Shown here piece after piece: positions 20,380-44,911 of a DNA stretch of 64,000 nucleotides. This DNA comes from a virus (taxonomy: Duplodnaviria; Caudoviricetes), in IMG/VR virus record IMGVR_UViG_3300034061_006011; one strand, given 5' to 3'. The first letter of the stretch is position 1. The number at the start of each line of letters is the position of its first letter. The notes beneath the pieces are model-generated. The model did not search any database. It had not been told where the DNA came from and saw only the letters and a program-made list of their open reading frames with translations. A program made the position numbers and the translations under genes.

Positions 20380-21012
20380 ATGAAAACATTCAAAGAATAT
20401 GTCGAATTAAGAGAAACAAAAACAAATTTGCTCCAGCAAGGAAAAGGTTGGCTTGGTGGACTTGTAAAATCTGCTGGTAAATTTGCAGCTTCATTTATTC
20501 CGGGCGCAGACGCAGCAAGTGCAGCTGTGGATATGGCTACACAAATATATAATGTCAAGAAGCAAAAAGGAAAAGTAAATGAATTAATTAGAAAAGCAGC
20601 ATCTTTACCAGATAATAGTAGAGGATCTGTAAAGAATGGAGATATTTTTGATGTTTCTGACACTTTGTGGAATACAGTTAATAAAGACTCTCAAGATAAA
20701 ATTATAAATATTGTTGACAAAAATTTAGATAGATATATTGCAGCTAATCAGATGCCTAAACCTAGTTTTGCTGACATGCTTGCTCACAAGTATGTTATTG
20801 GTAAATTACCAAGAGCAACATCTAAAATAGTTCCTGTACAAGGACAAGCAGCGCCACAACAAGGTCAAGCTGCACCACAACCACAACAAGCAGCACCACA
20901 ACAAGGACAGCAACGTCAAGCTGCACCACAACAACCACAACAACCACAGCAACGTCAAGCTGCACCACAACAACCACAACAACCACAGCAACGTCAAGCT
21001 GTTCGTCGTTAA
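20380..21012 (+). CDS. Putative internal head protein with Q/P-rich tail
   Basis: Starts MKTFKEYVE; QAAPQQ repeats. Confidence 0.65.
   Translation: MKTFKEYVELRETKTNLLQQGKGWLGGLVKSAGKFAASFIPGADAASAAVDMATQIYNVKKQKGKVNELIRKAASLPDNSRGSVKNGDIFDVSDTLWNTVNKDSQDKIINIVDKNLDRYIAANQMPKPSFADMLAHKYVIGKLPRATSKIVPVQGQAAPQQGQAAPQPQQAAPQQGQQRQAAPQQPQQPQQRQAAPQQPQQPQQRQAVRR
20830..21000 (+). repeat. Coding tandem repeats (QAAPQQ / QQRQAAPQQPQQP)
   Basis: Repeated caagctgcaccacaacaa units. Confidence 0.85.
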
Positions 21013-23980: not shown

Positions 23981-25021
23981 ATGCTCAATTATGAAAAGTG
24001 GAAGAAACTCAATGAGAGCTTTATGATGTCATCACCAATTGGTGGCATTACCCATAACAATGGGTTCCTTGCTTATAGTCCTCTCTCTGAAGCCGAAATG
24101 GACAGAGATGAAGATGAAGACATGGAAGATGAAGACATGGAAGACGAAGACATGGAAGACGAAGATATGGAAGATGAAGACATGGATGATGAAGATATGG
24201 AAGATGAAGATATGGAAGATGAAGATATGGATGATGAAGATATGGATGATGAAGATATGGATGATGAAGACATGGATGATGAAGACATGGATGATGAAGA
24301 TGATGGAGAAATGGAAATTCAAGATGATGCTGGAGAAATTGAAGAAATAGAAGATGGTGATGAATCAGAAGATTCTGATGACGGTGCTGTTCATCATCAT
24401 CACCACCACTACCATGGTCATAAGAATAAAGAAGCATATAGCGATGATGCAGATGAAGAAGCTGGCAATGAGATGATGTGCAAGCGTTGTGGTTCTTACA
24501 TGGCTAACGAAAATCATGATTGTGGCATTGATGAGTGGGCTGCTAGTGTTAAGTCTTTGATTAATCCAGTTATTTTACAGAAGCTTAATGGTAAGATTTT
24601 GACTGAAGCATCATTCAAGGGTGCTAAAATTGATATTAAAGATGGTGAAGTTGGTTCTGTTGGTGCTGTAAAGTCTAAATTAAAAACTTTCCTTGATGGT
24701 GTCGAAAGTCAAATTGACAGCATGACTGATAGACAAAGATATTCAATTCTTTCCAGTGTTGTTAACGCTTTGGTTACCGATGCTGAACTTCCTGACTTCT
24801 TGAAGTTTATCAAAATGGAAAAAAGTTCAATTGTGAAGAGTGACCCAAAAGAAACAGAAGAAAAAATGTATAAGGGTAGAGTCTCCAAGAAGAAAAGTGG
24901 TCCATGCAAGAAGTGTTCAACTAGCATGAAATTTATGCCAGCAAAATCAGGCAAGTATGCTGGCAAAAATATGCCAACAAAATCAGGCAAGTATGCTGGC
25001 AAAAAAATGAAAAAGAAATGA
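23981..25021 (+). CDS. Acidic-repeat/His-tract protein, putative internal head protein
   Basis: GGAGA RBS; starts MLNYEKWKKLNE; EDM(E/D)D repeats, poly-His, basic C-terminus. Confidence 0.7.
   Translation: MLNYEKWKKLNESFMMSSPIGGITHNNGFLAYSPLSEAEMDRDEDEDMEDEDMEDEDMEDEDMEDEDMDDEDMEDEDMEDEDMDDEDMDDEDMDDEDMDDEDMDDEDDGEMEIQDDAGEIEEIEDGDESEDSDDGAVHHHHHHYHGHKNKEAYSDDADEEAGNEMMCKRCGSYMANENHDCGIDEWAASVKSLINPVILQKLNGKILTEASFKGAKIDIKDGEVGSVGAVKSKLKTFLDGVESQIDSMTDRQRYSILSSVVNALVTDAELPDFLKFIKMEKSSIVKSDPKETEEKMYKGRVSKKKSGPCKKCSTSMKFMPAKSGKYAGKNMPTKSGKYAGKKMKKK
24105..24305 (+). repeat. 15-nt tandem repeat encoding EDM(D/E)D
   Basis: About 12-13 copies of gaagayatggaw-gay. Confidence 0.9.
24935..25006 (+). 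repeat. 36-nt direct duplication (MP[A/T]KSGKYAGK[N/K])
   Basis: Two near-identical copies starting at 24935 and 24971. Confidence 0.85.
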
Positions 25022-31101: not shown

Positions 31102-31513
31102 GAGACATTAGCTTGCTGTCAAAATTGTGGAATTCACTTCCACTGTATTGCATGTTGATTTCCCTAAATTGAGTTTCTTCTAGTTCTGATGAAACATCAA
31201 AGTAAAAAAATCTATTTTTCTTTCCAAGTAAAATAAACTTGTGCATCAAAATATAAGCTGCACAACCTAGATCGTTTGTAAAACAATTGCTTTTAATTTC
31301 AAATGGATATTCATCAAGTTTCTTCAAACTCATTAAACATGAATCGAAATGATGAAATTCACTTGATAAATAACTTATTTTTAAATCTTCAAACTTTTTA
31401 TTTTCATCTGAAACAACTTCAAACAAAAAACTTTTATCTTTTTTATCACGCAGTTTGTATTCATGCATAACAAGATAAGCAGCAATTCCAATATCTCTAA
31501 TTTCTTTTAACAT
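31085..31513 (-). CDS. Tandem-domain protein, DUF5659-like
   Basis: Two ~65-aa repeats D.G.AAY..MH...F.F...SEFH.FDS.LMSLKK. Confidence 0.6.
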   Translation of the reverse strand: MLKEIRDIGIAAYLVMHEYKLRDKKDKSFLFEVVSDENKKFEDLKISYLSSEFHHFDSCLMSLKKLDEYPFEIKSNCFTNDLGCAAYILMHKFILLGKKNRFFYFDVSSELEETQFREINMQYSGSEFHNFDSKLMSLKKIF

Positions 31514-32514
31514 CAGTTAGAATTCTCCGCTGCTATTAAACAGCCTTTGGCAATTGTGTAAGTTGCATTATCTGCTCTTGTAATATCTCCAAGTTCAATA
31601 CTTAAGCCAGCACTCTTCATTGCATCTCTAAATATTACATCAAACCCAGCAATACATGATGTGCCACCAGCAACAACAACATCAACTGCGCCAGCAGACC
31701 TAACATTTGTTTTTGCGTTTGCAAGCCCGTTTTTGATGCCTTGGACGGTCTTTTCAATCATGATCCTATATTGGGTGCCAATTGCCCTTTCAATCATGTT
31801 TGTTGGTTCTTTGCTCAAATCAACTTTCATCTTTTCTTTATTGATAACTGTAGTGCTTTCACCAGTTGCTTTGGCTGATTGTTTGTCAATCCAATCACCT
31901 GAATTTACAATTGCAAATTGGAATACTGGATTACCATACATTGCGTAGCAGACGTTTACCATTCCACCTCCGCAAGATATTCCAATCCCTGTATAAGCCT
32001 TCTTTTGCATTTCTGCATAGATGATAGCTAAAGCTTCATTGATTGGACTTGGATTTAGTTTATAACCAGCTTCGCTTCTATAACTCTTAAATATGCTGTG
32101 AAGAATTTTTTGATGGTAATCTGCATCTGTTTCTGTGTTTACGGCATTTGCAGGAACACAATAATAGATCTTTTCATCATCTTTATCAATTTCGCCAATC
32201 AATGAATGAATCATGATCTGCAAGATTTCAAATGCACTTTTTTCTTTTGGATTAACGCATCCTTCTGACATTGGACGCTTTAGTTCTAAAGAAGCTAATG
32301 TGTAAGCCATATTTACAGCAGCTTCACCAAGAACATAACCCATATTGTCCCTTTCAATCAAAGGAACACCAGAGTTTTTCATCATGTTAAATAAGAAACG
32401 ATTTTCTAAAGGAATTTCAACAAATGAATTGATTCCCTTGTTGAATTCAATTTCTTTCTTGTTTCTTTTGGCGCAAATCAAAGAAAACGTACCAACATCA
32501 AATCCGAGACTCAT
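31513..32514 (-). CDS. Actin-like ATPase (MreB/ParM/FtsA fold)
   Basis: Phosphate-1 GFDVGT, connect-1 INEALA, phosphate-2 ISCGGG and adenosine VVAGGTS. Confidence 0.8.
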   Translation of the reverse strand: MSLGFDVGTFSLICAKRNKKEIEFNKGINSFVEIPLENRFLFNMMKNSGVPLIERDNMGYVLGEAAVNMAYTLASLELKRPMSEGCVNPKEKSAFEILQIMIHSLIGEIDKDDEKIYYCVPANAVNTETDADYHQKILHSIFKSYRSEAGYKLNPSPINEALAIIYAEMQKKAYTGIGISCGGGMVNVCYAMYGNPVFQFAIVNSGDWIDKQSAKATGESTTVINKEKMKVDLSKEPTNMIERAIGTQYRIMIEKTVQGIKNGLANAKTNVRSAGAVDVVVAGGTSCIAGFDVIFRDAMKSAGLSIELGDITRADNATYTIAKGCLIAAENSN

Positions 32515-32758: not shown

Positions 32759-33718
32759 TTAAACGCAAAATTTGTTTAAAAAATAGTTTAGTTTATCGTT
32801 TACAATATCCATTGGTAATTCTATTGAACATTTTAATTGTTTGTCAATTAAAGGATAAGGACATCTTCCCATGTTATTACAAGGTCCGCATGTCCAATTT
32901 TTATCATTTGATGAATCTTTTTGAATAACTGTTAAGTTTTTATAATGTTTACCAACAACATGTCCATTTGTGTAATTAAAAAATCCTAGCAAAGGTTTGT
33001 TATATCCACCAGCGCAATGTAAATGACCTGTGTCTGTTGATATTACCATGTCTGAAAAATATATCATACTCATTGCTTCAATAAAATTTCTACATGCTAT
33101 TAGTGGAAATTTTAATTGATCTAATGTTGGAATATTATGCATATAAAAACAGAAAGCATTAGTTTCTAATAATCTTTTTTCTACAAGTTCACGATGTTTT
33201 TGCATTATATGTCTAGTAGGGACTGCGCTATATGGTGTAAATGCTATTATTTTTTGACCTTCTTTATATCCACCTTGTTTAAATAAAGAAAAAATATAAT
33301 CTCTATTTTTTTCTAAACTAGGTAAATGCATGTTATGATTGTCTAATGTAAGTCCAAATGATTCAGCCCAAATATCACTGCGATTTTTAACACATTCTTT
33401 GTTGTAGAAAGCTTCATGTCTTGAGCAATGATGTGTTATATTAAAAACTTGCCTATAATTATTATAATCAATGTCTTTATGATCTATTACTTCATCAATA
33501 TATTTATGATCTTTTATTACTTGAAAATAAGCTTGAGGTAGAGCATATGTTATTTTAAAATCAGGATATTGCTTTTTTAGATCTTCAAATATCATTCTAG
33601 ACATTAAAATGTCGCCGTATCCACCACATAAACGTAAAATGCAAATATTATTTTTTATTTTATTGTAATGTTTGATTCCTTGTGCCTTTTTAGGAGGCAT
33701 TTTAATAATTAGTTTCAC
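32759..33718 (-). CDS. Glycosyltransferase family 9 (heptosyltransferase-like)
   Basis: GGYGDILM, KQYPDFKI and ISTDTGHLHCAGGYNKP motifs. Confidence 0.85.
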   Translation of the reverse strand: MKLIIKMPPKKAQGIKHYNKIKNNICILRLCGGYGDILMSRMIFEDLKKQYPDFKITYALPQAYFQVIKDHKYIDEVIDHKDIDYNNYRQVFNITHHCSRHEAFYNKECVKNRSDIWAESFGLTLDNHNMHLPSLEKNRDYIFSLFKQGGYKEGQKIIAFTPYSAVPTRHIMQKHRELVEKRLLETNAFCFYMHNIPTLDQLKFPLIACRNFIEAMSMIYFSDMVISTDTGHLHCAGGYNKPLLGFFNYTNGHVVGKHYKNLTVIQKDSSNDKNWTCGPCNNMGRCPYPLIDKQLKCSIELPMDIVNDKLNYFLNKFCV

Positions 33719-35639: not shown

Positions 35640-35918
35640 TTAGTTTTCTATAATATCATTTATGTTAAGATAAAATCTGCCTCTTGCAGACTTAATTAAC
35701 ACTTGATTTTCGATAATCTCTTCTACTGTTCCACCATTCTTGATAAAATCTTTTCCAATTTTTAATGAATTACCAATTATGATATCTGCTACTTCGCAAA
35801 AGTGTTTTAGTGATAAATTTGTTGTAACGCTATTACCGATCAATTTTTTATTTTCATTGATCTCGTTTTGAGCTTTTAGCCATTTCTTAAAATCGTAAAC
35901 AAATTTGTTATTGTTCAT
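35640..35918 (-). CDS. Small hypothetical protein
   Basis: 92-aa ORF; FVYDFKKWL N-terminus. Confidence 0.55.
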   Translation of the reverse strand: MNNNKFVYDFKKWLKAQNEINENKKLIGNSVTTNLSLKHFCEVADIIIGNSLKIGKDFIKNGGTVEEIIENQVLIKSARGRFYLNINDIIEN

Positions 35919-36813
35919 AAAATTTTTCTAAATTGTTTGGTTCAATATAGTTAGCAAACAACAAAGAATTTTTTATTCCAATGTAAGAAATATTTGTGTT
36001 TGAATTTCCAAGTTTTTGCCAGAATAAATTTGCATCAATAATATTTTTTGCAATTTTCTGTTGGGGATAGAAATGAAAATTTGTATCTTCTATTTTCTCT
36101 GTCCCCGGTCTTTGTTTTTCATAAGCATTTATTGGATAAGCAATGCATAATTTTTCACATTTCATTTTAGATGCTAATATTATTGCAGCAGATATTGAAC
36201 TTCTGTATTCATCAATATAATCAGCACTTTTGTGACTAATTGGACTTTCATAATTCTCATCTGGAGTTGTATTGTATCTAAATATTTTGTTTGGATATCT
36301 TTTAATAAATTTGTTGCATGATCTTGAACTTGCTATAAGGAATGGAAATATTCTTTCAGGCAGACAGGTTAAAGAATCTTCAAATGGATTAGTAAAAACC
36401 ATATAGTCTGGTAATCTTTTAGATTTCCAAAATCTGCTAGCACCATAAACTGTGATAATTTTTACATCTTTTGGCAATTGATCTAACCATGCGGTTGAAT
36501 TAGAAAATCCAAATCCATCTGATATTATTAATATTTTTTTGTGGATTATTGTTTCACTAAAAAAATCAAGCATTTGCATTTCTTGATTTTTCATTTCATT
36601 GTCTAGAAGAGTCTTCACTTCTTCTTTGCCATAAAATCCATTAATGTCTTTTGGCACAACATTTGGTTTCAAAAAATTCCTTACCCAAATGTTTTCATCA
36701 GTTAAATAATAATCATTCTTGTTTTTATGCAATTTGATTGTAACATTTTTCTCTTTATTGTTCGGCAGATTTACTTTAAAACTCTTGTAACTCTGCATGT
36801 TATTTTCTATCAT
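35908..36813 (-). CDS. DUF115/Maf-like (MptE-fold) putative sugar transferase
   Basis: KKILIISDG...KIITV...PDYMVF...SSISAAIILASKMKCEKL order typical of the fold. Confidence 0.45.
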   Translation of the reverse strand: MIENNMQSYKSFKVNLPNNKEKNVTIKLHKNKNDYYLTDENIWVRNFLKPNVVPKDINGFYGKEEVKTLLDNEMKNQEMQMLDFFSETIIHKKILIISDGFGFSNSTAWLDQLPKDVKIITVYGASRFWKSKRLPDYMVFTNPFEDSLTCLPERIFPFLIASSRSCNKFIKRYPNKIFRYNTTPDENYESPISHKSADYIDEYRSSISAAIILASKMKCEKLCIAYPINAYEKQRPGTEKIEDTNFHFYPQQKIAKNIIDANLFWQKLGNSNTNISYIGIKNSLLFANYIEPNNLEKFYEQ

Positions 36814-39800
36814 TGAATTCTGTTGATTCCCTTTCTGAGTCCTGTATTTTGTTAAATACAGTTTCTGCTTTAATCATATTAATTATTGGAGTTACATTGT
36901 TCTCAATATTAACTACACTTTGGTTAACAACAGGTTCAATATCAATTTTTTCTATCTTAATTTCTTCTGTAACTGAATCGTTCTCAACAAAATTTATGTT
37001 TTTGACTTCTTCTTTTTCACTCTTAGAATCCTCATATATTTCTACTATTTGAGGAATATTATCAATATTAATTGATTTAGAATCAGATTCTGTAACATTG
37101 TCTTTAGCAACTGGGGTAAAGAGCGTAGCTTCTTCTATATTAGTATTAATTTTTTCAATTTCTTTACTTGAATTCAATTCTGACAATTTCAAAAATTTCA
37201 TTTCTGTTTTTTTGCTTTGATTGTAAACTTCGATTCCAAAATTAACATTCTTCATTTTGTCTTTAGCTTTTATCAAATGTAAATTTGATTTTTCACAAAA
37301 ACGATTGCAATCTCTAAGATTGTCAAATAATCCTAAGTTTTCAAAATAAAGACCAGCATTATCAATGTTTATACTCAAACATTCACACTTGTTGTTGGTT
37401 AATAAAGGATCTTTTACTGCAAAATAAATGTTGCTTTCAGTTGCGTTGAATGCAAAGGATGGTACAGGTTGACAGTTGATATCGTTTTGTTCTTCGCCCT
37501 CAGTCGGGCACGCTTCACCTAATCCGGGACAATTACAAGATGCAGTACAACCTAAAGGAGTGGGTGGTGACAAATTACAGGGTGATGTAGCAACCCATAT
37601 ACCAGCACTACATATTTTGCTACAAAAACAAGATAAACAATTACCTACTGGAGCAGAAGGTGTAGGCGGTGTTGGTGCAGTTGGTGTACACGAAGGATCT
37701 TTTTTACATGGTCTGTAAACAACCTGACCACTTATGCCTCTATTAGAAGGAGGTGGAGAAGTTATGCAAACATCAGGACAGTCATCGCAACAAATACATT
37801 TGTCGTTATCAAAAGTTTCATAGTTCCAACAAGTATTTATAGAAAACCATCTATTGTCTTGTACAGACCATTGGCACTGACAAGAACACTCGTTTTTTTC
37901 GCTTAGAACATCAGTGCAGTCGTTAGTTGGATCATGTTCAGTACATACAGTAAATCTTTGATAGTCGCCCGGTTGAGTCGGTGCTTGTAAATCCTCTAAA
38001 CAATAACATTCACAATTACCAATACAGTTAGAAATTTTTCTCCAGTTTGGATTTGGTATATCTGGGTGACAAGGAGTTCCAAGTCCGGGATCATATTGCC
38101 ATTCACATTGGTTAGGACATCCGGGATCTTTAAAACAACCAGTTGAAGCAAGTTCACCATCAGTTGTTCCGGGATTCTTTGGATGTGTGCAAGAACAACT
38201 AACATTAAAACAGCCTATTTGTTTAGGCATCCATTCTTCAAGTATTGAACTCCATTCCCAGAGACAATTTTCACCACAATAAGATTTACATCCAATATGG
38301 ATTATATCACCAATAAATTGAATTGGTGAAATTGGAATTTCCGATCCATCTCGACATACACAATCTCCATCACATGGTTGATAAATAAACGCACCATCAG
38401 CAGGTTGTCCATATTTCCTACATCCAGCATTATTACCAGTTGCCTGTGCCCACGAAGCAATACCTGAAGAATTAATTCCAAAAATGTATCTACACATACA
38501 ATTTTTGCAGTTTGAAGGATAATATGGATAAAAAGATGGAGTAAGATATATTGGTGTAATACTTGGAGTTAATGGCGCTGTTGGATTAGGAGGTCCGGGT
38601 GGTAAAAATCCGGGAGATGCTGGAACTGGTGGGAAAGCTGGTCCCGGTGGAATTGGTCCTGATGCCGGTGATGCTGGTCCTGATGCCGGTCCCGCCGCTG
38701 GTCCGGGATTAAATATTGGCGATGATGGCGAAGCTACCGGAGCAGAAGCTGGCGATGATGGAGCAGTCGGACCAAAACAAATATTATCTGAAACGCATAT
38801 GTTTATTAAAGCTCTACCAATAATACCAATTTGGTCGCATGTATCATATCCAGTATCATTGTTAAATTTTTGGACATACATCTCGTATTGTCCATCTGGA
38901 TTAATATTTTGAAAAGAAGATAAACCTGTTTTGTATGGAGCAGGTGGAGCAGGAGCAAGCAAACTGATATTTTCATGTCCATTTGGAGATGGATGATAAG
39001 TTCCAGATAACAAAGGAGTGTTAGTACTAACAGGTAATATATAATTTGTACTACTATCATCAAATGTTATATCAACATAATCAGCAATAGTATATGCGTT
39101 TGCGCCAATTGCTAATAATAATACAGCTGTTCCGTCTGGTCCAACCACTAATATTCTTACATCACCTAATCTTTTACTTGGTTTGAAAATTTTTAAAGAT
39201 TCAATTTCCACTGTCATTTTACTTATTGATGGCGTTCCATTACATAAAGATCCTGCAATAGTAAAATTAGCTGGATAAGGATTTGCTGTACAATTTGACC
39301 TAATATTTATTCCACCCGTTCTTATTGTAAAACAATCATTAAAATCAAAATTAACATTACCACCAATGGTTATTGGCGTAACACTTATCAAACTTGGGAT
39401 ATTTGGGAAAGGACTAACAGAAATAAATGAAGGAATGTTTGGAAACGGAGTTACTGTAATCACTGAAGGAATATTAAGATCTGGAGTTATATTAATAGTT
39501 GATGGTATAAATATAGGTCCAATATTAGCAAAAAAGTTTGGAAATACAATCGGAGGAAAGTTAATAATAACAGGATCACAATTTGCCGTAACAATCGGAA
39601 AAGGACCGGGAGTCAAAGCAGTTGGAATAGGTAAAGTAGGAACAGTTGCAGGAGTTCTAGCATCAATTAAATTTCCAGCGCCACCAACATTGTTTCTTAC
39701 TATGCCAGATACAACTGTAGAACAATTTTGATTAACTACCGTTAAAACTGGATCAACAACAAAGTTTGGTGGATAAATATGAGTGCCAATTAAACTGTTT

Positions 39801-40411
39801 GCATCAGATGTACCATCACCAAAATCTAAAATAAAACTATTAATATTTCCATTGATTATAATTTCATATGATATTTCAGTTCCAGTAACTGGACTCGAAG
39901 AAATAGTAGTATAATAAAATGTTACATCAGGACAACCAGAGTCATCTCCTATTTGCGGTAAACCTGCTAAATTTCTAACTCTCCAGTCAACAGTAGCTTG
40001 ATCTGGATTCTCCGTATAACCAATAAAATTTTCAGTGTTTACAATCGCTCTGGCAAGCTGATTGTGATGTTCTGCCATCACAAATCCACGAATATCTGTA
40101 CCAGCAGCATTAAACTTGGAAGACTTTCCACCAATATTACGCAAACAATTCAACAAACCATTCACTTTACTTGTATATTGGTCTTTGCTTACATTTTCGT
40201 AATAAAGAACTTCACCAGATATTGTGGCGTATCCATTATCTGCCCAAACTTCTGGTTTATCAGCATCAACAGGTTTGATATACAATGTTGTATCAAATTG
40301 TTCTGCTGATTTTGTTAGTATACTTTCAGTTGTGTTGTATACGTTAAGGAGTGTATAATCAGAATCATAGTTCTGAGGATATTGTGACGTTGGCGGAAAT
40401 ACTTGCTTCAA
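36800..40411 (-). CDS. Large virion protein: HHN module, PKD, proprotein-convertase P-domain, Pro-rich linker, Cys/Trp repeats
   Basis: TTG start with RBS; LDFGDG PKD; GDVRILVVGPDGTAVLL...ITFDDS P-domain; ~44 Cys in ~350 aa. Confidence 0.7.
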   Translation of the reverse strand: MKQVFPPTSQYPQNYDSDYTLLNVYNTTESILTKSAEQFDTTLYIKPVDADKPEVWADNGYATISGEVLYYENVSKDQYTSKVNGLLNCLRNIGGKSSKFNAAGTDIRGFVMAEHHNQLARAIVNTENFIGYTENPDQATVDWRVRNLAGLPQIGDDSGCPDVTFYYTTISSSPVTGTEISYEIIINGNINSFILDFGDGTSDANSLIGTHIYPPNFVVDPVLTVVNQNCSTVVSGIVRNNVGGAGNLIDARTPATVPTLPIPTALTPGPFPIVTANCDPVIINFPPIVFPNFFANIGPIFIPSTINITPDLNIPSVITVTPFPNIPSFISVSPFPNIPSLISVTPITIGGNVNFDFNDCFTIRTGGINIRSNCTANPYPANFTIAGSLCNGTPSISKMTVEIESLKIFKPSKRLGDVRILVVGPDGTAVLLLAIGANAYTIADYVDITFDDSSTNYILPVSTNTPLLSGTYHPSPNGHENISLLAPAPPAPYKTGLSSFQNINPDGQYEMYVQKFNNDTGYDTCDQIGIIGRALINICVSDNICFGPTAPSSPASAPVASPSSPIFNPGPAAGPASGPASPASGPIPPGPAFPPVPASPGFLPPGPPNPTAPLTPSITPIYLTPSFYPYYPSNCKNCMCRYIFGINSSGIASWAQATGNNAGCRKYGQPADGAFIYQPCDGDCVCRDGSEIPISPIQFIGDIIHIGCKSYCGENCLWEWSSILEEWMPKQIGCFNVSCSCTHPKNPGTTDGELASTGCFKDPGCPNQCEWQYDPGLGTPCHPDIPNPNWRKISNCIGNCECYCLEDLQAPTQPGDYQRFTVCTEHDPTNDCTDVLSEKNECSCQCQWSVQDNRWFSINTCWNYETFDNDKCICCDDCPDVCITSPPPSNRGISGQVVYRPCKKDPSCTPTAPTPPTPSAPVGNCLSCFCSKICSAGIWVATSPCNLSPPTPLGCTASCNCPGLGEACPTEGEEQNDINCQPVPSFAFNATESNIYFAVKDPLLTNNKCECLSINIDNAGLYFENLGLFDNLRDCNRFCEKSNLHLIKAKDKMKNVNFGIEVYNQSKKTEMKFLKLSELNSSKEIEKINTNIEEATLFTPVAKDNVTESDSKSINIDNIPQIVEIYEDSKSEKEEVKNINFVENDSVTEEIKIEKIDIEPVVNQSVVNIENNVTPIINMIKAETVFNKIQDSERESTEFNDRK

Positions 40412-40444
40412 TTTTATGCCCTACCTATTAATATTTAGTTTAAT

Positions 40445-43400
40445 TTAAAATATATTACTATGCCATTGAGAAGAATTTACCCTTTTTGGCAATCTACTGA
40501 ATGTTAAAGTTATATCACTAAACTGAATGAATGAATTGTCTGTGTAGTCAAAGCTAACATATGCTATGTGGTCATTATCAGAACATGCAACAAGAGTATT
40601 TGCTGGATTATTATAATCTGGCTTGGTAGTATCTTGCATTCCTTTGAATGCAAGTGAATTGATACCCGGACCACCAGTTTGCCAAACAGCATTGTTTGGA
40701 TTATAAGCTGAAACACTTCCTGTGTTATTAAAGAAGTACAAACCAGATGAAAGATTAACAAGACCGCCTTCTAATTTTTCTGGTCCAGCAATATCAGCTA
40801 ATTTTTCAAAGTAATAAATAAGGTTAACACCATCTTCTTTTGTTTTATAGAAACTATTTATTTTAAAGAAATCTCCAATACCACTGTTCCTAAGAATATA
40901 ACCATTTCTGCCATTAAATGCAGTTCTGTATACTGAGAAATAACCATAAAGACTTGTTCCATCATCAAATTGTGATGGATTTTGTTTCAATTCTCCAGAA
41001 GAACCTAAGTACTGAATCCCTGATATTGTTGATGTTGAATATGAATTTGATATCAAATCATGTTGAAGAATCTGTTGATTTGTCAAAGAAAGACCAGCAG
41101 GTTGAGTTAATGGATTGCCAAATAGATAATAAATATTATTTTCAAAGCCATAAGCTATCCAGTTCCAAGGTCTGTATGTTGCATTAAATGCATTATAAGT
41201 TTCATTAAATGCATTATAATTTATAGAAATTATCTTTTCTAAACTAACAGGATCAACGGCATCTCTACCTGTCGCATAATTCAACAGAAGACTGCCACCA
41301 TAACCACTTGAATAAACACTATTAAGTGTAGAAAAACTATTTCTAGAAAATTCTCTAATTGCTTGAGTGTCATTTTCTGTGCCTTGCAAGAAATTATCAT
41401 TAATGAAAACTTCTTGACCAGTAGATTGTGTTGTTTTAAATGTGTGACTTAAAAGACCAAATTCGTTTGCGTAAATATAATTTGAATTGGCTCCATAAGT
41501 AAACAAATAATAGTTCTTTAATTCTATTACATTAATATAATTTGCTTTTTGTGTTATTCTATAAGAACCATTTTCTGTCAAGCATTGAAGAACTAGATCA
41601 TAGACTCCACCAATAGGATAACTTATATTTGTGTAAGAATTATTTGGGTGAGAAAGAACATCGCTTAGTATCCAATTGTATTCTGTCACTGGATCAATTG
41701 CGTTTTCTCCATTGTCTGTAACTACAACGTAAAGATTAATATTGTTTGGTGTCTTTACTTGTCCATTTATTTCTATTTGATAAGTGTTTAATTCTGGAAC
41801 AATTGTTGCAAAATCTGGAGCTTCATATCTTGCATTGATATAATCTGGGAATTCTGAAACATTTGTGCCAAATTCATTGGTAACAGTTAATGTTACAGTA
41901 TAAATTCCCGGATTTTGATATGTGTGCGTTACATCAGCTGAAGAGTTTTTGGTGGAATAATTAATAACTTTTGTTGAACCATCTCCAAAATCCCATGTGT
42001 AAGTTATATCATTTCCCCGTAATTCTTTTCCAGAATTAAAACTTAAATCTGTAAAATAAACTTCTAAAGGAACAATTCCTACTGTTGCGTTTGCGTTAAA
42101 CCAAGGTTTTGGATTATAAGCAATACTTCTAATGTAATTAATTCTCTGTTCAATCGTACCAACCAGAGGTTTAGTAGCAATTTGATTAGCAACACCAACA
42201 TAATTCTGAATTGTTTTTAATGCGTTTTTAACAGCATTATGGTGTTGAGCAACAACATTCAATGTGACATTGGTTACATTTTTAGGTTTGTAGGAATCAA
42301 CAAATTCATCTAAAAGTTTAATTCCTTCAAATGTAGTGTTTGTTTTTGATGTGTAATAGAAAGAAATTGCTCTAAATTCAGGTTCACTACAGTTTTCTGT
42401 TAAAGTTATAATCCCTGCATCAGGGAACAAAGCCATCATAATTGGATTGTTCTCAACCACAACTGATATGTCACCAAGATTGTAATCTTGCGCCAACATT
42501 AATCTCAAACTATCTTTTGTAGCATAAAGATTAGCATCGCTATCATATTGTGTTGGGAAGTTAATAGCTGGTAAAACTGCACTTACTTCTGGAGCAACTG
42601 GTGCTACAGGAACAATAGGCGGTAATGGTGTTGCTGGTCCTGCTATTGGTGTCGTAGGTGCAATCGGACTTGGTATTGGAGTCGGTGTCGGTGCAGGTGT
42701 TGGAACGGGAATAGGTGCAGGAACTGGAATTGGCGTTACTGTAGGCGTTGCTGGTCCTACTGCTGGTGTTGCTGGTCCTACTGCTGGTGTTGCTGGTCCT
42801 ACTGCTGGTGTTGCTGCTGGTGTTGCTGCTGGTGTTGCTGGTCCTACTGCTGGTGTTGCTGGTCCTACTGCTGGTGTAGCTGGTGTAAAGCTTGGTGTTG
42901 CTGGTGTAAAGCTTGGTGTTGTTGGTCCTGCTGGTGTAAAGCTTGGTGTTGTTGGTCCTGCTGGTGTAAAGCTTGGTGTTGTTGGTCCTGCTGCTGGTGT
43001 AAAGCTTGGTGTTGTTGGTCCTGCTGCTGGTGTAAAGCTTGGTGTTGTTGGTCCTGCTGCTGGTGTAAAGCTTGGTGTTGCTGGTGTAAAGCTTGGTGTT
43101 GCTGGTGTAGCTGATGGTGTAGGTGTTGTTCTTGATACGCAACTAGTTGTTGCTTCCTGACCTATATAATCGCCTGAATATGTGGGTTGTGCATTCTCGC
43201 ACCAGCATTCTGTCGTGCATGAGTTGTTTATCAATAGCCAATAAGAAAAACCACCCGCTTGAAACCACTGCCAAAAACAACTGCCACATACTGGTGTTGC
43301 TGGTGTTGCTGGTGTTGATGGTGTTGCTGGTGTTGATGGTGTTGCTGGTGTTGCTGGTGTTGATGGTGTTGATGGTGTAAAGCTTGGTGTTGCTGGTCCT

Positions 43401-44911
43401 GCTGGTGTAAAGCTTGGTGTTGCTGGTCCTGCTGGTGTAAAGCTTGGTGTTGCTGGTCCTGCTGGTGTAAAGCTTGGCGTTGCTGGTCCTGCTGGTGTTG
43501 CTGGTGTTGCTGGTCCTGCTGGTGTTGCTGGTGTTGCTGGTGTTGCTGGTGTTGCTGGTGTTGCTGGTGTTGCTGGTGTATACGGAGCAGCCTGCGGCGT
43601 ATGCGGTGTTGCTGGTGTTGCTGGTGTTGCTGGTGTTGCTGGTGTTGCTGGTGTTGCTGGTGTTGCTGGTGTTGCTGGTGTTGCTGGTGTTGCTGGTGTT
43701 GCTGGTGTTGGACTGCATTGAGATTGGTAAGTTTCATCAAGAAAACTAGCAGCATCAAAACATTGATCTTCTGCGTTACTGTCACACATAGTCCATGCTA
43801 ATAAAGTACAATCTGCCCAGCTACCAAGAGGAGAAAGACATGTTTCTAAATTTGCACACGCATCAATTTGAATACCATTAGGACAACAAACCATAGCAAT
43901 AATAGTACATTCAACATCATCGGCAGTTTTACATTCACCTGCAATTGCATCCCAATATGGAGGAATTCCTTGATGCCCTCCACCAGTACATCCATTGGTA
44001 CATTTTGCTTCTGCACCCGGAGTGGCAATAAAGCTACCTGAATCTGTTGTGTAACATCCTTGACTTTCACAGCATTCTTGATCTTGACATTGCGGTCCAG
44101 CTTGTGGTGTTGCATTTGGTGTAGCATTTGGTGTAGCATTTGGTGTAGCATTTGGTGTAGCTGGTGTAGCTGGTGTAGCTGGTGTAGCTGGTGGTGGTTG
44201 ACATGATGTTTGGTATGTATCACCCGGATTATCACAAGGACCGCCATCAATTGGACAAGAAACTCCACATTCTTCTGGGCACTCTGCATTTGTTCTTAAC
44301 CAGTTTCCTTCAATGCAAGCATAGTCACAAGAACCACCACAATTACAAGCAAAATGTCTTTTTTCTGATAAACTAGAACATGGTTCTAATTCTCCCGGAC
44401 AATACTCACCACAAGGTGCAGAACTTTGTGGTCCATCTGGACATGCTCCAAATTGCCCCTCACCAATTTGCCAACAACCTACAGGATAAGCTGGACCGCA
44501 AGGAGAGCATGTTTGTTCACAAAAACAACAGACTGTATCTGCTTCTGCACCAACATTTCCCGAAGTGCAATCATAAGCTGGACTACCACCATAAGTTGAA
44601 CTAGGCTGGGTGCAAGTCCCCATCAAACAATCACGAGTTTTGGTCCATGCATATCCACCATTTTGGGATTCGCATTTCCAACCGCAAGTTAGACCAGTTT
44701 CGTTTATCTTACGCACTTCTTCAACATTATTTCCTTTAAAGTTTTCAATATATTTTAATACTTGTTCAGCTTCATCAAATGTTTCATAAGGAGAAGATAA
44801 TATTGATTCACTTTCTTGTAAAGAATTATTATCTTCTAAATAAAGAATATAAAGATCATCATTATTAATGATGATATACCAACCTTTGATGAATTCTGAT
44901 TCTTCAGACAT
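40445..44911 (-). CDS. Large virion protein: Cys/Trp repeats, PAT mucin-like stalk, HHN module, PKD
   Basis: WDFGDGS...HTYQNPGIYTVTL PKD; PAT/TPSF repeats; Cys-rich N-terminus. Confidence 0.7.
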   Translation of the reverse strand: MSEESEFIKGWYIIINNDDLYILYLEDNNSLQESESILSSPYETFDEAEQVLKYIENFKGNNVEEVRKINETGLTCGWKCESQNGGYAWTKTRDCLMGTCTQPSSTYGGSPAYDCTSGNVGAEADTVCCFCEQTCSPCGPAYPVGCWQIGEGQFGACPDGPQSSAPCGEYCPGELEPCSSLSEKRHFACNCGGSCDYACIEGNWLRTNAECPEECGVSCPIDGGPCDNPGDTYQTSCQPPPATPATPATPATPNATPNATPNATPNATPQAGPQCQDQECCESQGCYTTDSGSFIATPGAEAKCTNGCTGGGHQGIPPYWDAIAGECKTADDVECTIIAMVCCPNGIQIDACANLETCLSPLGSWADCTLLAWTMCDSNAEDQCFDAASFLDETYQSQCSPTPATPATPATPATPATPATPATPATPATPATPATPHTPQAAPYTPATPATPATPATPATPATPAGPATPATPAGPATPSFTPAGPATPSFTPAGPATPSFTPAGPATPSFTPSTPSTPATPATPSTPATPSTPATPATPVCGSCFWQWFQAGGFSYWLLINNSCTTECWCENAQPTYSGDYIGQEATTSCVSRTTPTPSATPATPSFTPATPSFTPAAGPTTPSFTPAAGPTTPSFTPAAGPTTPSFTPAGPTTPSFTPAGPTTPSFTPATPSFTPATPAVGPATPAVGPATPAATPAATPAVGPATPAVGPATPAVGPATPTVTPIPVPAPIPVPTPAPTPTPIPSPIAPTTPIAGPATPLPPIVPVAPVAPEVSAVLPAINFPTQYDSDANLYATKDSLRLMLAQDYNLGDISVVVENNPIMMALFPDAGIITLTENCSEPEFRAISFYYTSKTNTTFEGIKLLDEFVDSYKPKNVTNVTLNVVAQHHNAVKNALKTIQNYVGVANQIATKPLVGTIEQRINYIRSIAYNPKPWFNANATVGIVPLEVYFTDLSFNSGKELRGNDITYTWDFGDGSTKVINYSTKNSSADVTHTYQNPGIYTVTLTVTNEFGTNVSEFPDYINARYEAPDFATIVPELNTYQIEINGQVKTPNNINLYVVVTDNGENAIDPVTEYNWILSDVLSHPNNSYTNISYPIGGVYDLVLQCLTENGSYRITQKANYINVIELKNYYLFTYGANSNYIYANEFGLLSHTFKTTQSTGQEVFINDNFLQGTENDTQAIREFSRNSFSTLNSVYSSGYGGSLLLNYATGRDAVDPVSLEKIISINYNAFNETYNAFNATYRPWNWIAYGFENNIYYLFGNPLTQPAGLSLTNQQILQHDLISNSYSTSTISGIQYLGSSGELKQNPSQFDDGTSLYGYFSVYRTAFNGRNGYILRNSGIGDFFKINSFYKTKEDGVNLIYYFEKLADIAGPEKLEGGLVNLSSGLYFFNNTGSVSAYNPNNAVWQTGGPGINSLAFKGMQDTTKPDYNNPANTLVACSDNDHIAYVSFDYTDNSFIQFSDITLTFSRLPKRVNSSQWHSNIF
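42590..43140 (-). repeat. Coding tandem repeats TPSFTPA(A)GP / TPAVGPA / PAP
   Basis: Repeated ggtgtaaagcttggtgtt and gctggtcctact units on +. Confidence 0.9.
43290..43712 (-). repeat. 9-nt tandem arrays encoding (PAT)n with TPSFTPAGPA units
   Basis: Long ggtgttgct arrays on +. Confidence 0.95.
44100..44195 (-). repeat. (PAT)n and (PNAT)n coding repeats
   Basis: ggtgtagct and tttggtgtagca units on +. Confidence 0.85.

Follow-up and report, generated by a model that had tools for sequence, protein, structure and literature searches.

Modular adhesion domains on phage fibres are, as a kind, already known. In particular, immunoglobulin-like (Ig-like), PKD and carbohydrate-binding decorations on phage virions serve weak multivalent adhesion. 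Among eukaryotic modules, the thrombospondin type 1 repeat (TSP_1), a domain of approximately 50-60 amino acids (aa) with six cysteines, three antiparallel strands and a tryptophan in the first strand, is used in tandem, is adhesive and is often glycosylated. Here, we describe a small cysteine- and tryptophan-rich module, the Cys6/Trp unit, which is repeated in two fibre-like proteins, P0001 and P0002, encoded side by side on a 64,000-nucleotide (nt) stretch of phage DNA (Caudoviricetes; IMG/VR record IMGVR_UViG_3300034061_006011). This whole stretch is referred to as the window throughout.

The unit resembles TSP_1 in its size, its six Cys, its three predicted antiparallel strands, its conserved first-strand Trp and its use in tandem. 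That said, it carries W-x-W and not W-x-x-W, seems to lack an Arg ladder and spaces its Cys differently; what is more, TSP_1 gave no Pfam match to the units at E ≤ 10 and was absent from the rows of our fold search, in which small domains are hard to match. The alternation of Cys/Trp beads with Pro/Thr/Ser stalks, with glycosyltransferases alongside, recalls mucins and their CysD/WxxW domain, the differences being that phages encode the present proteins, whose assembly takes place in a prokaryotic cytoplasm, that the units are half the size and that they have no Pfam match, including to the mucin WxxW family. With Ig-like, PKD and carbohydrate-binding decorations, for instance Hoc of phage T4, the units share the character of small, repeated, dispensable-looking beta domains, and PKD domains are present in the proteins described here themselves; however, the units have another fold, are rich in Cys and match these domains in neither sequence nor structure.

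Two further phage systems are relevant as precedents. Namely, the capsid and tail-tube subunits of mycobacteriophage virions are reported to carry glycans at their C-terminal ends (Freeman et al. 2023, PMC10527164, as cited in PMC12619734). Phage-encoded glycosyltransferases near structural genes are common to that system and to ours, where glycosylation is only inferred, whereas that citation mentions no Cys/Trp module. In Agrobacterium phage Milano, a disulfide network prevents tail contraction (PMC10811340), which gives a precedent for functional disulfides in a contractile-tailed particle; as described, this is a network, and not a self-contained, repeated mini-domain on fibres as here. 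Finally, large aquatic phages are the subject of a 2025 paper in which glycosyltransferases are mentioned and a cysteine-rich module is not. What appear to be undescribed are the Cys6/Trp domain itself, its apparent fold, its spread over unrelated phages and its consistent pairing with glycosyltransferase genes.

Results

A repeated mini-domain shared by two adjacent proteins

The repeated element, approximately 46-60 aa in length, is a mini-domain that had not been annotated before. In an alignment of 29 units from ten proteins (alignment A3), its consensus is C-x2-3-C-x-W-x-W-x4-8-W-x5-6-C-x2-8-C-x-C-x2-P-x3-5-G-x3-G-(E/Q/D)-x4-6-C, with all six Cys columns invariant or at least 90% conserved, one invariant Trp placed 5-6 residues before the third Cys, and one near-invariant Pro. 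Thr is common 2-3 residues ahead of the last Cys. Canonical examples are found in both proteins of the window, namely P0001 aa 712-759 and P0002 aa 542-591.

The relationship between the units of the two proteins was assessed with a profile trained without any sequence from the window or its close homologues (P0001-P0006). This external profile recovers P0001 aa 711-759 (27.4 bits), P0002 aa 540-591 (22.6 bits) and P0002 aa 190-237 (8.5 bits), while P0002 aa 76-128 and 128-178 do not rise above 0 bits. Measured against composition-matched shuffles, the z-scores are 14.3 for P0001 aa 630-985, 10.5 for P0002 aa 538-591 and 5.4 for P0002 aa 70-240. For the 16-Cys block at P0002 aa 275-399 the value is -1.5, and this block is therefore not a Cys6/Trp unit. 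A strict form of the motif occurs once in each protein versus 0.001-0.003 expected per shuffle, being approximately 300-1000 times rarer in the composition-matched shuffles. Profiles built from the P0001 units alone or from the P0002 units alone detect the other set weakly (best domain 4.5 bits, shuffle z 2.3-4.4), and BLASTP self-comparison of the Cys regions reveals no internal repeats, since the units are too divergent for it.

An initial annotation of this DNA had placed about five copies of a Cys/Trp unit at 37470-38520, with about 44 Cys, and about three more in P0002, and had taken them for one unrecognised module, a disulfide- or metal-stabilised adhesion domain displayed on flexible stalks. 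The five copies are borne out, with 44 Cys falling within P0001 aa 635-980 (nt 37472-38509), and so is the coherence of the repeat, as the units align as a family and the external profile finds them in both proteins. In P0002, two of the three copies (aa 189-237 and 542-591) are solid, and the third (aa 76-128) is degenerate, as is an additional candidate at aa 128-178. In other words, the earlier interpretation is supported in part; the module stands as real, repeated, undescribed and stalk-borne, but its three P0002 copies are not equal, and its stabilisation and adhesive role are at the level of proposals.

Predicted fold and searches for known families

AlphaFold2, run on alignment A3, predicts three strands with a mean predicted local distance difference test score (pLDDT) of 89.9 and a predicted template modelling score (pTM) of 0.68; the same topology, at a pLDDT of 75, came from an earlier alignment of 18 rows. 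In the model, W-x-W belongs to strand 1, which begins with the second Cys, and the invariant Trp to strand 2, while strand 3 directly precedes the last Cys; the remaining three Cys (C...C-x-C) and the conserved Pro are placed in a long loop. A three-stranded antiparallel mini-sheet is thus predicted with a high model confidence.

As the initial annotation had it, the module is unrecognised. Searches of Pfam at E ≤ 10 gave no family for eight of nine units and a single RING-like row (E 0.77) for the ninth, and Pfam searches with whole proteins gave no match in the unit region. Nothing relevant to the unit came from NCBIfam, from PHROGs or from searching PDB sequences with a profile; in particular, EGF-like, hevein, peritrophin-A and other small disulfide-rich modules gave no curated-family match in Pfam, NCBIfam or the PDB-sequence profile search. 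Among solved structures there was likewise no match, the best VIA-align Z values being 2.8 and 2.6 and the Foldseek search of PDB being empty at E ≤ 0.001, and ESM Atlas, searched by features or by shape, gave nothing usable. Convincing similarity of fold was limited to two uncharacterised proteins, one with 134 aa from an uncultured Caudovirales phage (probability 1.00, template modelling (TM) score 0.68, root-mean-square deviation 2.8, 26% identity) and the other an unnamed 74-aa AFDB entry (probability 0.97, TM score 0.68). With no family or solved-structure match, and with all look-alikes uncharacterised, we treat the Cys6/Trp unit as an undescribed domain family.

Two ways of mounting the units

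The genes of P0002 and then P0001, both on the minus strand, come directly after baseplate genes (gp6-like, P2-I-like and spike), and their units sit on or beside long low-complexity stretches rich in Pro, Thr and Ala, in agreement with the stalk setting that had been proposed. An anchor-plus-PKD module of approximately 230 aa is common to three adjacent genes, namely P0001, P0002 and the preceding gene of 339 aa. The position in the tail block, the anchor domain and the variable remainder together suggest that P0001 and P0002 are baseplate-attached tail-fibre proteins. Coordinates are collected in Table 1.

P0001 begins with the anchor domain (aa 1-230), followed by Pro-rich strand repeats, a P-domain-like jelly roll (aa ~351-545) and a Pro/Ala linker, after which come the five units, a conserved 4-Cys segment and a Lys/Glu-rich tail. 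The five units are arranged in tandem, are 48-74 aa long each and abut one another; the extra Cys of units 3-5 come in even numbers. The assignment of aa ~351-545 (window 38777-39361), which lie after the strand repeats and ahead of the linker, to a jelly roll is suggested by a weak match to the proprotein convertase P-domain (PF01483, E 0.16). The tail (window 36800-37290, aa ~1041-1203) is of low complexity, rich in Lys, Glu and Asn, and 90-99% conserved among close relatives.

In P0002, the N-terminal 780 aa consist of Cys modules on Pro/Thr/Ala stalks and are followed by anchor plus PKD (aa ~781-1020) and a C-terminal domain. As the anchor module is N-terminal in P0001 and starts only at aa ~781 in P0002, the first 780 residues of P0002 constitute an N-terminal appendage, in which the canonical unit is flanked by stalks of 140 and 189 aa. 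A word-indexed search found no homologues of P0002 aa 60-400. In the P0002 orthologues of two relatives, the corresponding part has different Cys modules or none, so that the decoration of the appendage is lineage-specific.

Several smaller observations concern the same protein. In a 42%-identical relative, the P0002 counterpart (L004:1-4557) is without Cys/Trp units and has another, three-fold Cys-containing repeat of the pattern N-C-G-Y-H-L-L ... C-x-C-V-Y-G-D ... Y-Y-Y-T-G-S-G. A motif resembling G-P-Y-x-T-x-E-E-A-x-x-A-C is seen at the P0002 N-terminus (window 44730-44800, aa ~38-60), near the 4-Cys segment of P0001, in a small unit-bearing protein of a 254-kilobase (kb) relative (L025:803-1504) and, in three copies, in the same P0002-like protein of L004. 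What is more, contigs L001, L002 and L003 all end, with their first bases, inside the P0002 counterpart; Pro/Thr microsatellite-like arrays probably break assemblies, and the N-terminal appendage of P0002 would thus be systematically missing from databases.

Table 1. Positions of the proteins, units, stalks and neighbouring glycosyltransferase genes (window coordinates unless a locus is named)
Feature	Position	Strand	Evidence or score
P0001, fibre-like protein, 1203 aa	36800-40411	minus	open reading frame (ORF) and homologues
P0001 unit 1, aa 635-708, 8 Cys, long insertion between core Cys three and four	38288-38509	minus	
P0001 unit 2, aa 712-759, canonical 48 aa, 6 Cys, structure-prediction target	38135-38278	minus	
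P0001 unit 3, aa 765-823, 8 Cys, one extra Cys pair (one member in hairpin insertion)	37943-38119	minus	
P0001 unit 4, aa 842-902, 10 Cys	37706-37888	minus	
P0001 unit 5, aa 925-980, 10 Cys, most variable unit among relatives	37472-37639	minus	
P0001 Cys-free Pro/Ala/Ser linker, aa 546-629, directly before array	38525-38776	minus	
P0002, 1488 aa	40445-44911	minus	ORF
P0002 unit, aa 542-591, canonical, 6 Cys, alone between two stalks	43139-43288	minus	22.6 bits, z 10.5
P0002 unit, aa 189-237	44201-44347	minus	8.5 bits
P0002 two degenerate candidate units, aa 76-128 (44528-44686) and 128-178	44378-44686	minus	fit window-trained profiles only
P0002 other Cys-rich block, aa 275-399, 16 Cys, different from the Cys/Trp unit	43715-44089	minus	z = -1.5
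P0002 Pro/Thr/Ala microsatellite-like Cys-free stalks, aa 401-540 (140 aa) and 592-780 (189 aa)	42572-43711	minus	
Maf/MptE-like gene, start overlaps P0001 end	35908-36813	minus	PF01973, E 7.9e-5, below Pfam's cut-off
GT9-like glycosyltransferase gene, ~3 kb further downstream	32759-33718	minus	PF01075, 23.2 bits, cut-off 22
Conserved cassette of the GC-rich phages and two Planctomycetes genomes	L273:4608-6326, L272:4544-6625, L275:12838-14778, L276:13154-14896, L278:9830-11593, L279:9104-10963		

Variation among close relatives

Counted over seven close relatives, 45% of positions are variable in aa 630-985; the figures for aa 1-545 and for the C-terminal part are 9% and 15%. Most of the scaffold of the units is left unchanged in these relatives, including 39 of its 44 Cys and 9 of its 10 Trp. 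In the canonical unit 2, the variation lies mostly in the first half, which comprises the hairpin and the segment leading to C-x-C; residues that separate the Trp are among those that differ, and little changes in the second half. From the strand geometry, the Trp side chains would face the core and the alternate residues the solvent. The ratio of nonsynonymous to synonymous divergence (dN/dS) is approximately 0.5 in the unit region and 0.03-0.17 in the N-terminal 545 aa; values above 1 in the hairpin halves were looked for and not obtained. Synonymous divergence (dS) is itself raised two- to five-fold in the unit region, which points to the import of diverged segments.

Whole units are gained, lost and swapped while the flanks of close relatives stay about 95% identical. 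Namely, P0005 and P0006 have an extra unit, the last unit of P0006 (unit 5) has been replaced outright, and unit 2 is a mosaic, its P0006 version being that of P0001 while P0004 and P0005 have another version in common. In loci L006-L019, only the front of P0001 (aa 1-345/546) is conserved. A stable scaffold with a hypervariable exposed patch in a phage tail protein is also what characterises the variable proteins of diversity-generating retroelements. However, 37470-38520 has no template/variable repeat partner and no template-like repeat was found within the 64-kb window, so that a retroelement target is not supported. The variation seen here also includes whole-unit swaps and indels.

Distribution across phages

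The search of other proteomes that the initial annotation had proposed places the module well beyond this phage, in a wider family of phage-tail proteins. Closest are the orthologues of P0001, with 5-8 units, in four proteins and in IMG/VR loci L002-L005. One unit is present in the P0001-like fibre of a distant giant-phage relative (L007), and small proteins of the 254-kb record combine a short N-terminal part and a poly-Ser/Pro linker with one C-terminal unit; on short metagenomic contigs, Ser- or Asp/Ser-rich linkers are followed by two or three C-terminal units.

GC-rich members were found by scanning IMG/VR with a degenerate DNA pattern and passing the matches through the profile. Most matches of the scan are due to chance, and at least four loci with true units are among the matches listed, one being the near-twin contig of the window. 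Three IMG/VR records of 55-65% GC, one of them a provirus, encode proteins of 734-1210 aa in which poly-Thr linkers separate 4-10 units. With one such protein as query, a word-indexed search gave at least 50 proteins, nearly all of which have 4-10 detectable units together with 46-99 Cys and a Thr content of 13-24%. Two of these are hypothetical proteins in genomes of Planctomycetes, namely Bremerella volcania and Thermostilla marina. The position of the unit-bearing gene in the GC-rich phages, two to three genes after that of the tape measure, is the one that tail-tip and receptor-binding proteins usually take.

An exhaustive search of 1.84 billion representatives, using the early, narrow profile A2, yielded one close homologue (P0004) and four true metagenomic fragments; P0007 and P0009, also from this search, are false positives. 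In a local test, A2 misses true multi-unit members, so its low count says nothing about rarity and the family is badly undercounted. Separately, a 1555-aa fibre-like protein (L013:8129-12793) carries the P0001-type anchor domain together with many copies of another Cys repeat, E-C-P-x-D-C-x-V-x-L, and a run of P-x-W-W motifs.

Glycosyltransferase genes next to unit-bearing genes

In all seven GC-rich contexts examined, a GT2 glycosyltransferase gene (570-690 aa) lies immediately downstream of the unit-bearing gene, often with a second transferase or a methyltransferase also present. In the window, this neighbourhood is occupied by a Maf/MptE-like gene, which on its Pfam similarity is a candidate fibre glycosyltransferase, and by the GT9-like gene. 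The related giant-phage records contain GT9-like genes as well, in one case at a distance of about 5 kb from the fibre gene, and in the 254-kb relative the poly-Ser one-unit protein adjoins a weakly GT9-like gene (below Pfam's cut-off). Since the pairing recurs though the transferase families differ, it speaks for glycosylation being functionally linked to the Ser/Thr/Pro-rich fibres that bear the units, and the stalks are probably O-glycosylated by the neighbouring phage-encoded glycosyltransferases.

The arrangement forms a conserved cassette in the GC-rich phages and in the two Planctomycetes genomes, consisting of the tape measure gene, one or two small genes, the Thr-rich Cys/Trp-unit protein and the GT2 protein. 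Some of these GT2 proteins have a Methyltransf_24 or DUF6171 part, and a second transferase often comes next.

Discussion

Taken together, these results lead us to propose that the Cys6/Trp unit is a hypervariable adhesion module, probably stapled by disulfides and carried on probably glycosylated stalks, a reading that we regard as evenly poised between right and wrong. The shared anchor domain would fix the fibres to the baseplate, and the Pro/Thr/Ser/Ala stretches would act as extended stalks, O-glycosylated by the glycosyltransferases encoded next door. On these stalks, the units would be rigid beads, in tandem in P0001 and single in P0002, whose three disulfides would form once the virion is outside the cell. 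With the Cys/Trp scaffold kept constant, diversification would affect the exposed first-hairpin residues, copy number would shift by recombination and whole units would be swapped. Such arrays could then bind host-envelope structures multivalently, providing a first, reversible contact.

Several points weigh against this proposal. The adhesion role is inferred from context and hypervariability; the units have no known binding partner and the phage has no known host. At non-scaffold positions, dN/dS is 0.6-0.8, below 1 (one pair gives 1.06), and this, along with the raised synonymous divergence, means that the variability could reflect relaxed constraint plus recombination rather than positive selection. 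What is more, receptor-binding domains are usually found at the distal tip, whereas the P0001 units are internal, with approximately 220 conserved residues after the array. Concerning the chemistry, the combination of C-x2-3-C with C-x-C could bind metal, and virions assemble in a reducing cytoplasm. No Erv1/ALR sulfhydryl oxidase was found in related records, in a search whose controls also gave no match and which is thus uninformative. Finally, even Cys counts are not enriched in the GC-rich family, which limits the pairing argument to the window's clade; in the GC-rich family, units are split by poly-Thr insertions and many of the proteins are fragmentary.

Would the same observations arise if the units had no ligand of their own? 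Tandem EGF-like arrays do purely structural work in fibrillin, and the units might similarly stiffen or space the fibre or protect it from proteases, their variation being neutral drift of exposed residues. The absence of linkers between the abutting units of P0001, their internal position, the dN/dS below 1 and the restriction of strong conservation to scaffold residues would all be expected of such beads. However, the gain, loss and swapping of whole units between flanks that are about 95% identical is typical of host-range determinants, and single units at the ends of long flexible stalks, as in P0002 aa 542-591 and the small L025 and L020 proteins, have nothing to stiffen, so that we consider a solely structural role unlikely. 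Another function that would dispense with a ligand is suggested by folded EGF and thrombospondin repeats, which serve their O-glycosyltransferases as docking or acceptor modules; here, too, the unit could present itself to the adjacent enzymes, with the glycan as the functional surface. The pairing of the unit gene with a GT2, GT9-like or Maf-like gene is indeed conserved across unrelated phages, and a Thr is common close to the last Cys. Yet the transferase families differ by lineage (GT2 versus GT9-like/Maf-like) while the unit stays the same, the Ser/Thr-rich linkers are more obvious acceptors, and hypervariable surfaces fit poorly with a conserved enzyme docking site, which makes this explanation highly improbable in our view.

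A different kind of rival concerns chemistry rather than function. Namely, the units could be zinc-binding knuckles that fold in the cytoplasm, for example with four Cys on zinc plus one disulfide, and no disulfide knot. The C-x2-3-C directly before a strand, the second close Cys pair and the three-stranded sheet recall zinc ribbons, and assembly in a reducing cytoplasm would suit metal binding. In favour of pairing, every complete linker-bounded segment in the window's clade has an even number of Cys (6, 8, 10, 16, 18, 24, 34, 40, 42, 44 or 50), and many of these counts are not multiples of four. That said, a four-Cys metal site plus one disulfide would also total six, and Cys parity cannot tell 4+2 from 2+2+2. 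Measured against zinc ribbons and knuckles, the first pair fits, but the second is C-x-C and not C-x-x-C; no unit out of 29 has His at a core Cys column, the extra Cys come in even numbers, and no zinc-finger or zinc-ribbon family matches in Pfam at E ≤ 10 save for the one RING-like row at E 0.77. For these reasons, we hold zinc knuckles, as an account of the units, to be rather improbable. On the narrower question of what the six Cys do, three disulfides, formed after release into oxic water, seem to us probable, and a zinc site a good deal less so.

Returning to the adhesion proposal, one may extend it beyond the window. In this bolder form, which we put forward tentatively and think more likely wrong than right, at least two unrelated lineages, the giant myoviruses of lakes and siphovirus-like phages and prophages of Planctomycetes-type GC-rich hosts, would build mucin-like tail fibres in which glycosylated Ser/Thr/Pro stalks carry disulfide-knotted hypervariable binding units. 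The unit itself would represent a new receptor-binding class and would be to phages what EGF or thrombospondin-type modules are to eukaryotes.

Why would such a module matter? The receptor-binding parts of uncultured phages are mostly unreadable, as their distal domains match nothing, and the easily recognised, recurrent Cys6/Trp unit can help annotators to spot candidate host-range determinants. Should the fibres be disulfide-bonded and glycosylated, they would be extracellular-style glycoproteins from viruses assembled in a bacterial cytoplasm, which, if true, raises the question of when and how they are oxidised and glycosylated. In addition, binder engineering could make use of a scaffold that is small, stable and tolerant of heavy variation at its surface.

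The source phage and other features of the window

The window has a GC content of approximately 32%, and its DNA occurs in lake-water metagenomes from many studies. Among its genes are those of a contractile tail (sheath, sheath stabiliser, gp6-like wedge, P2-I-like protein and spike/hub). The best sheath match is 34% identical, and the phage has no cultured relative; the P0001-type anchor domain has a single match among deposited phage records, an uncultured 595-kb phage. In IMG/VR, a near-twin of the window, a 91-kb record with 56% of sampled 31-letter words in common, is given a CheckV completeness of 16%, and the more distant 254-kb relative is rated at 51%. On these ratings, the genome of the phage is probably several hundred kb.

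Two repeats lie in genes upstream of the fibre block, namely a 15-nt tandem array of approximately 15 copies (window 24065-24391) and a 9-21-nt repeat coding for Gln, Pro and Ala (window 20833-20992). Finally, for the gene at window 31513-32514, the counterpart in a related contig bears the precomputed Pfam label Volactin (PF25216), an actin-fold family.

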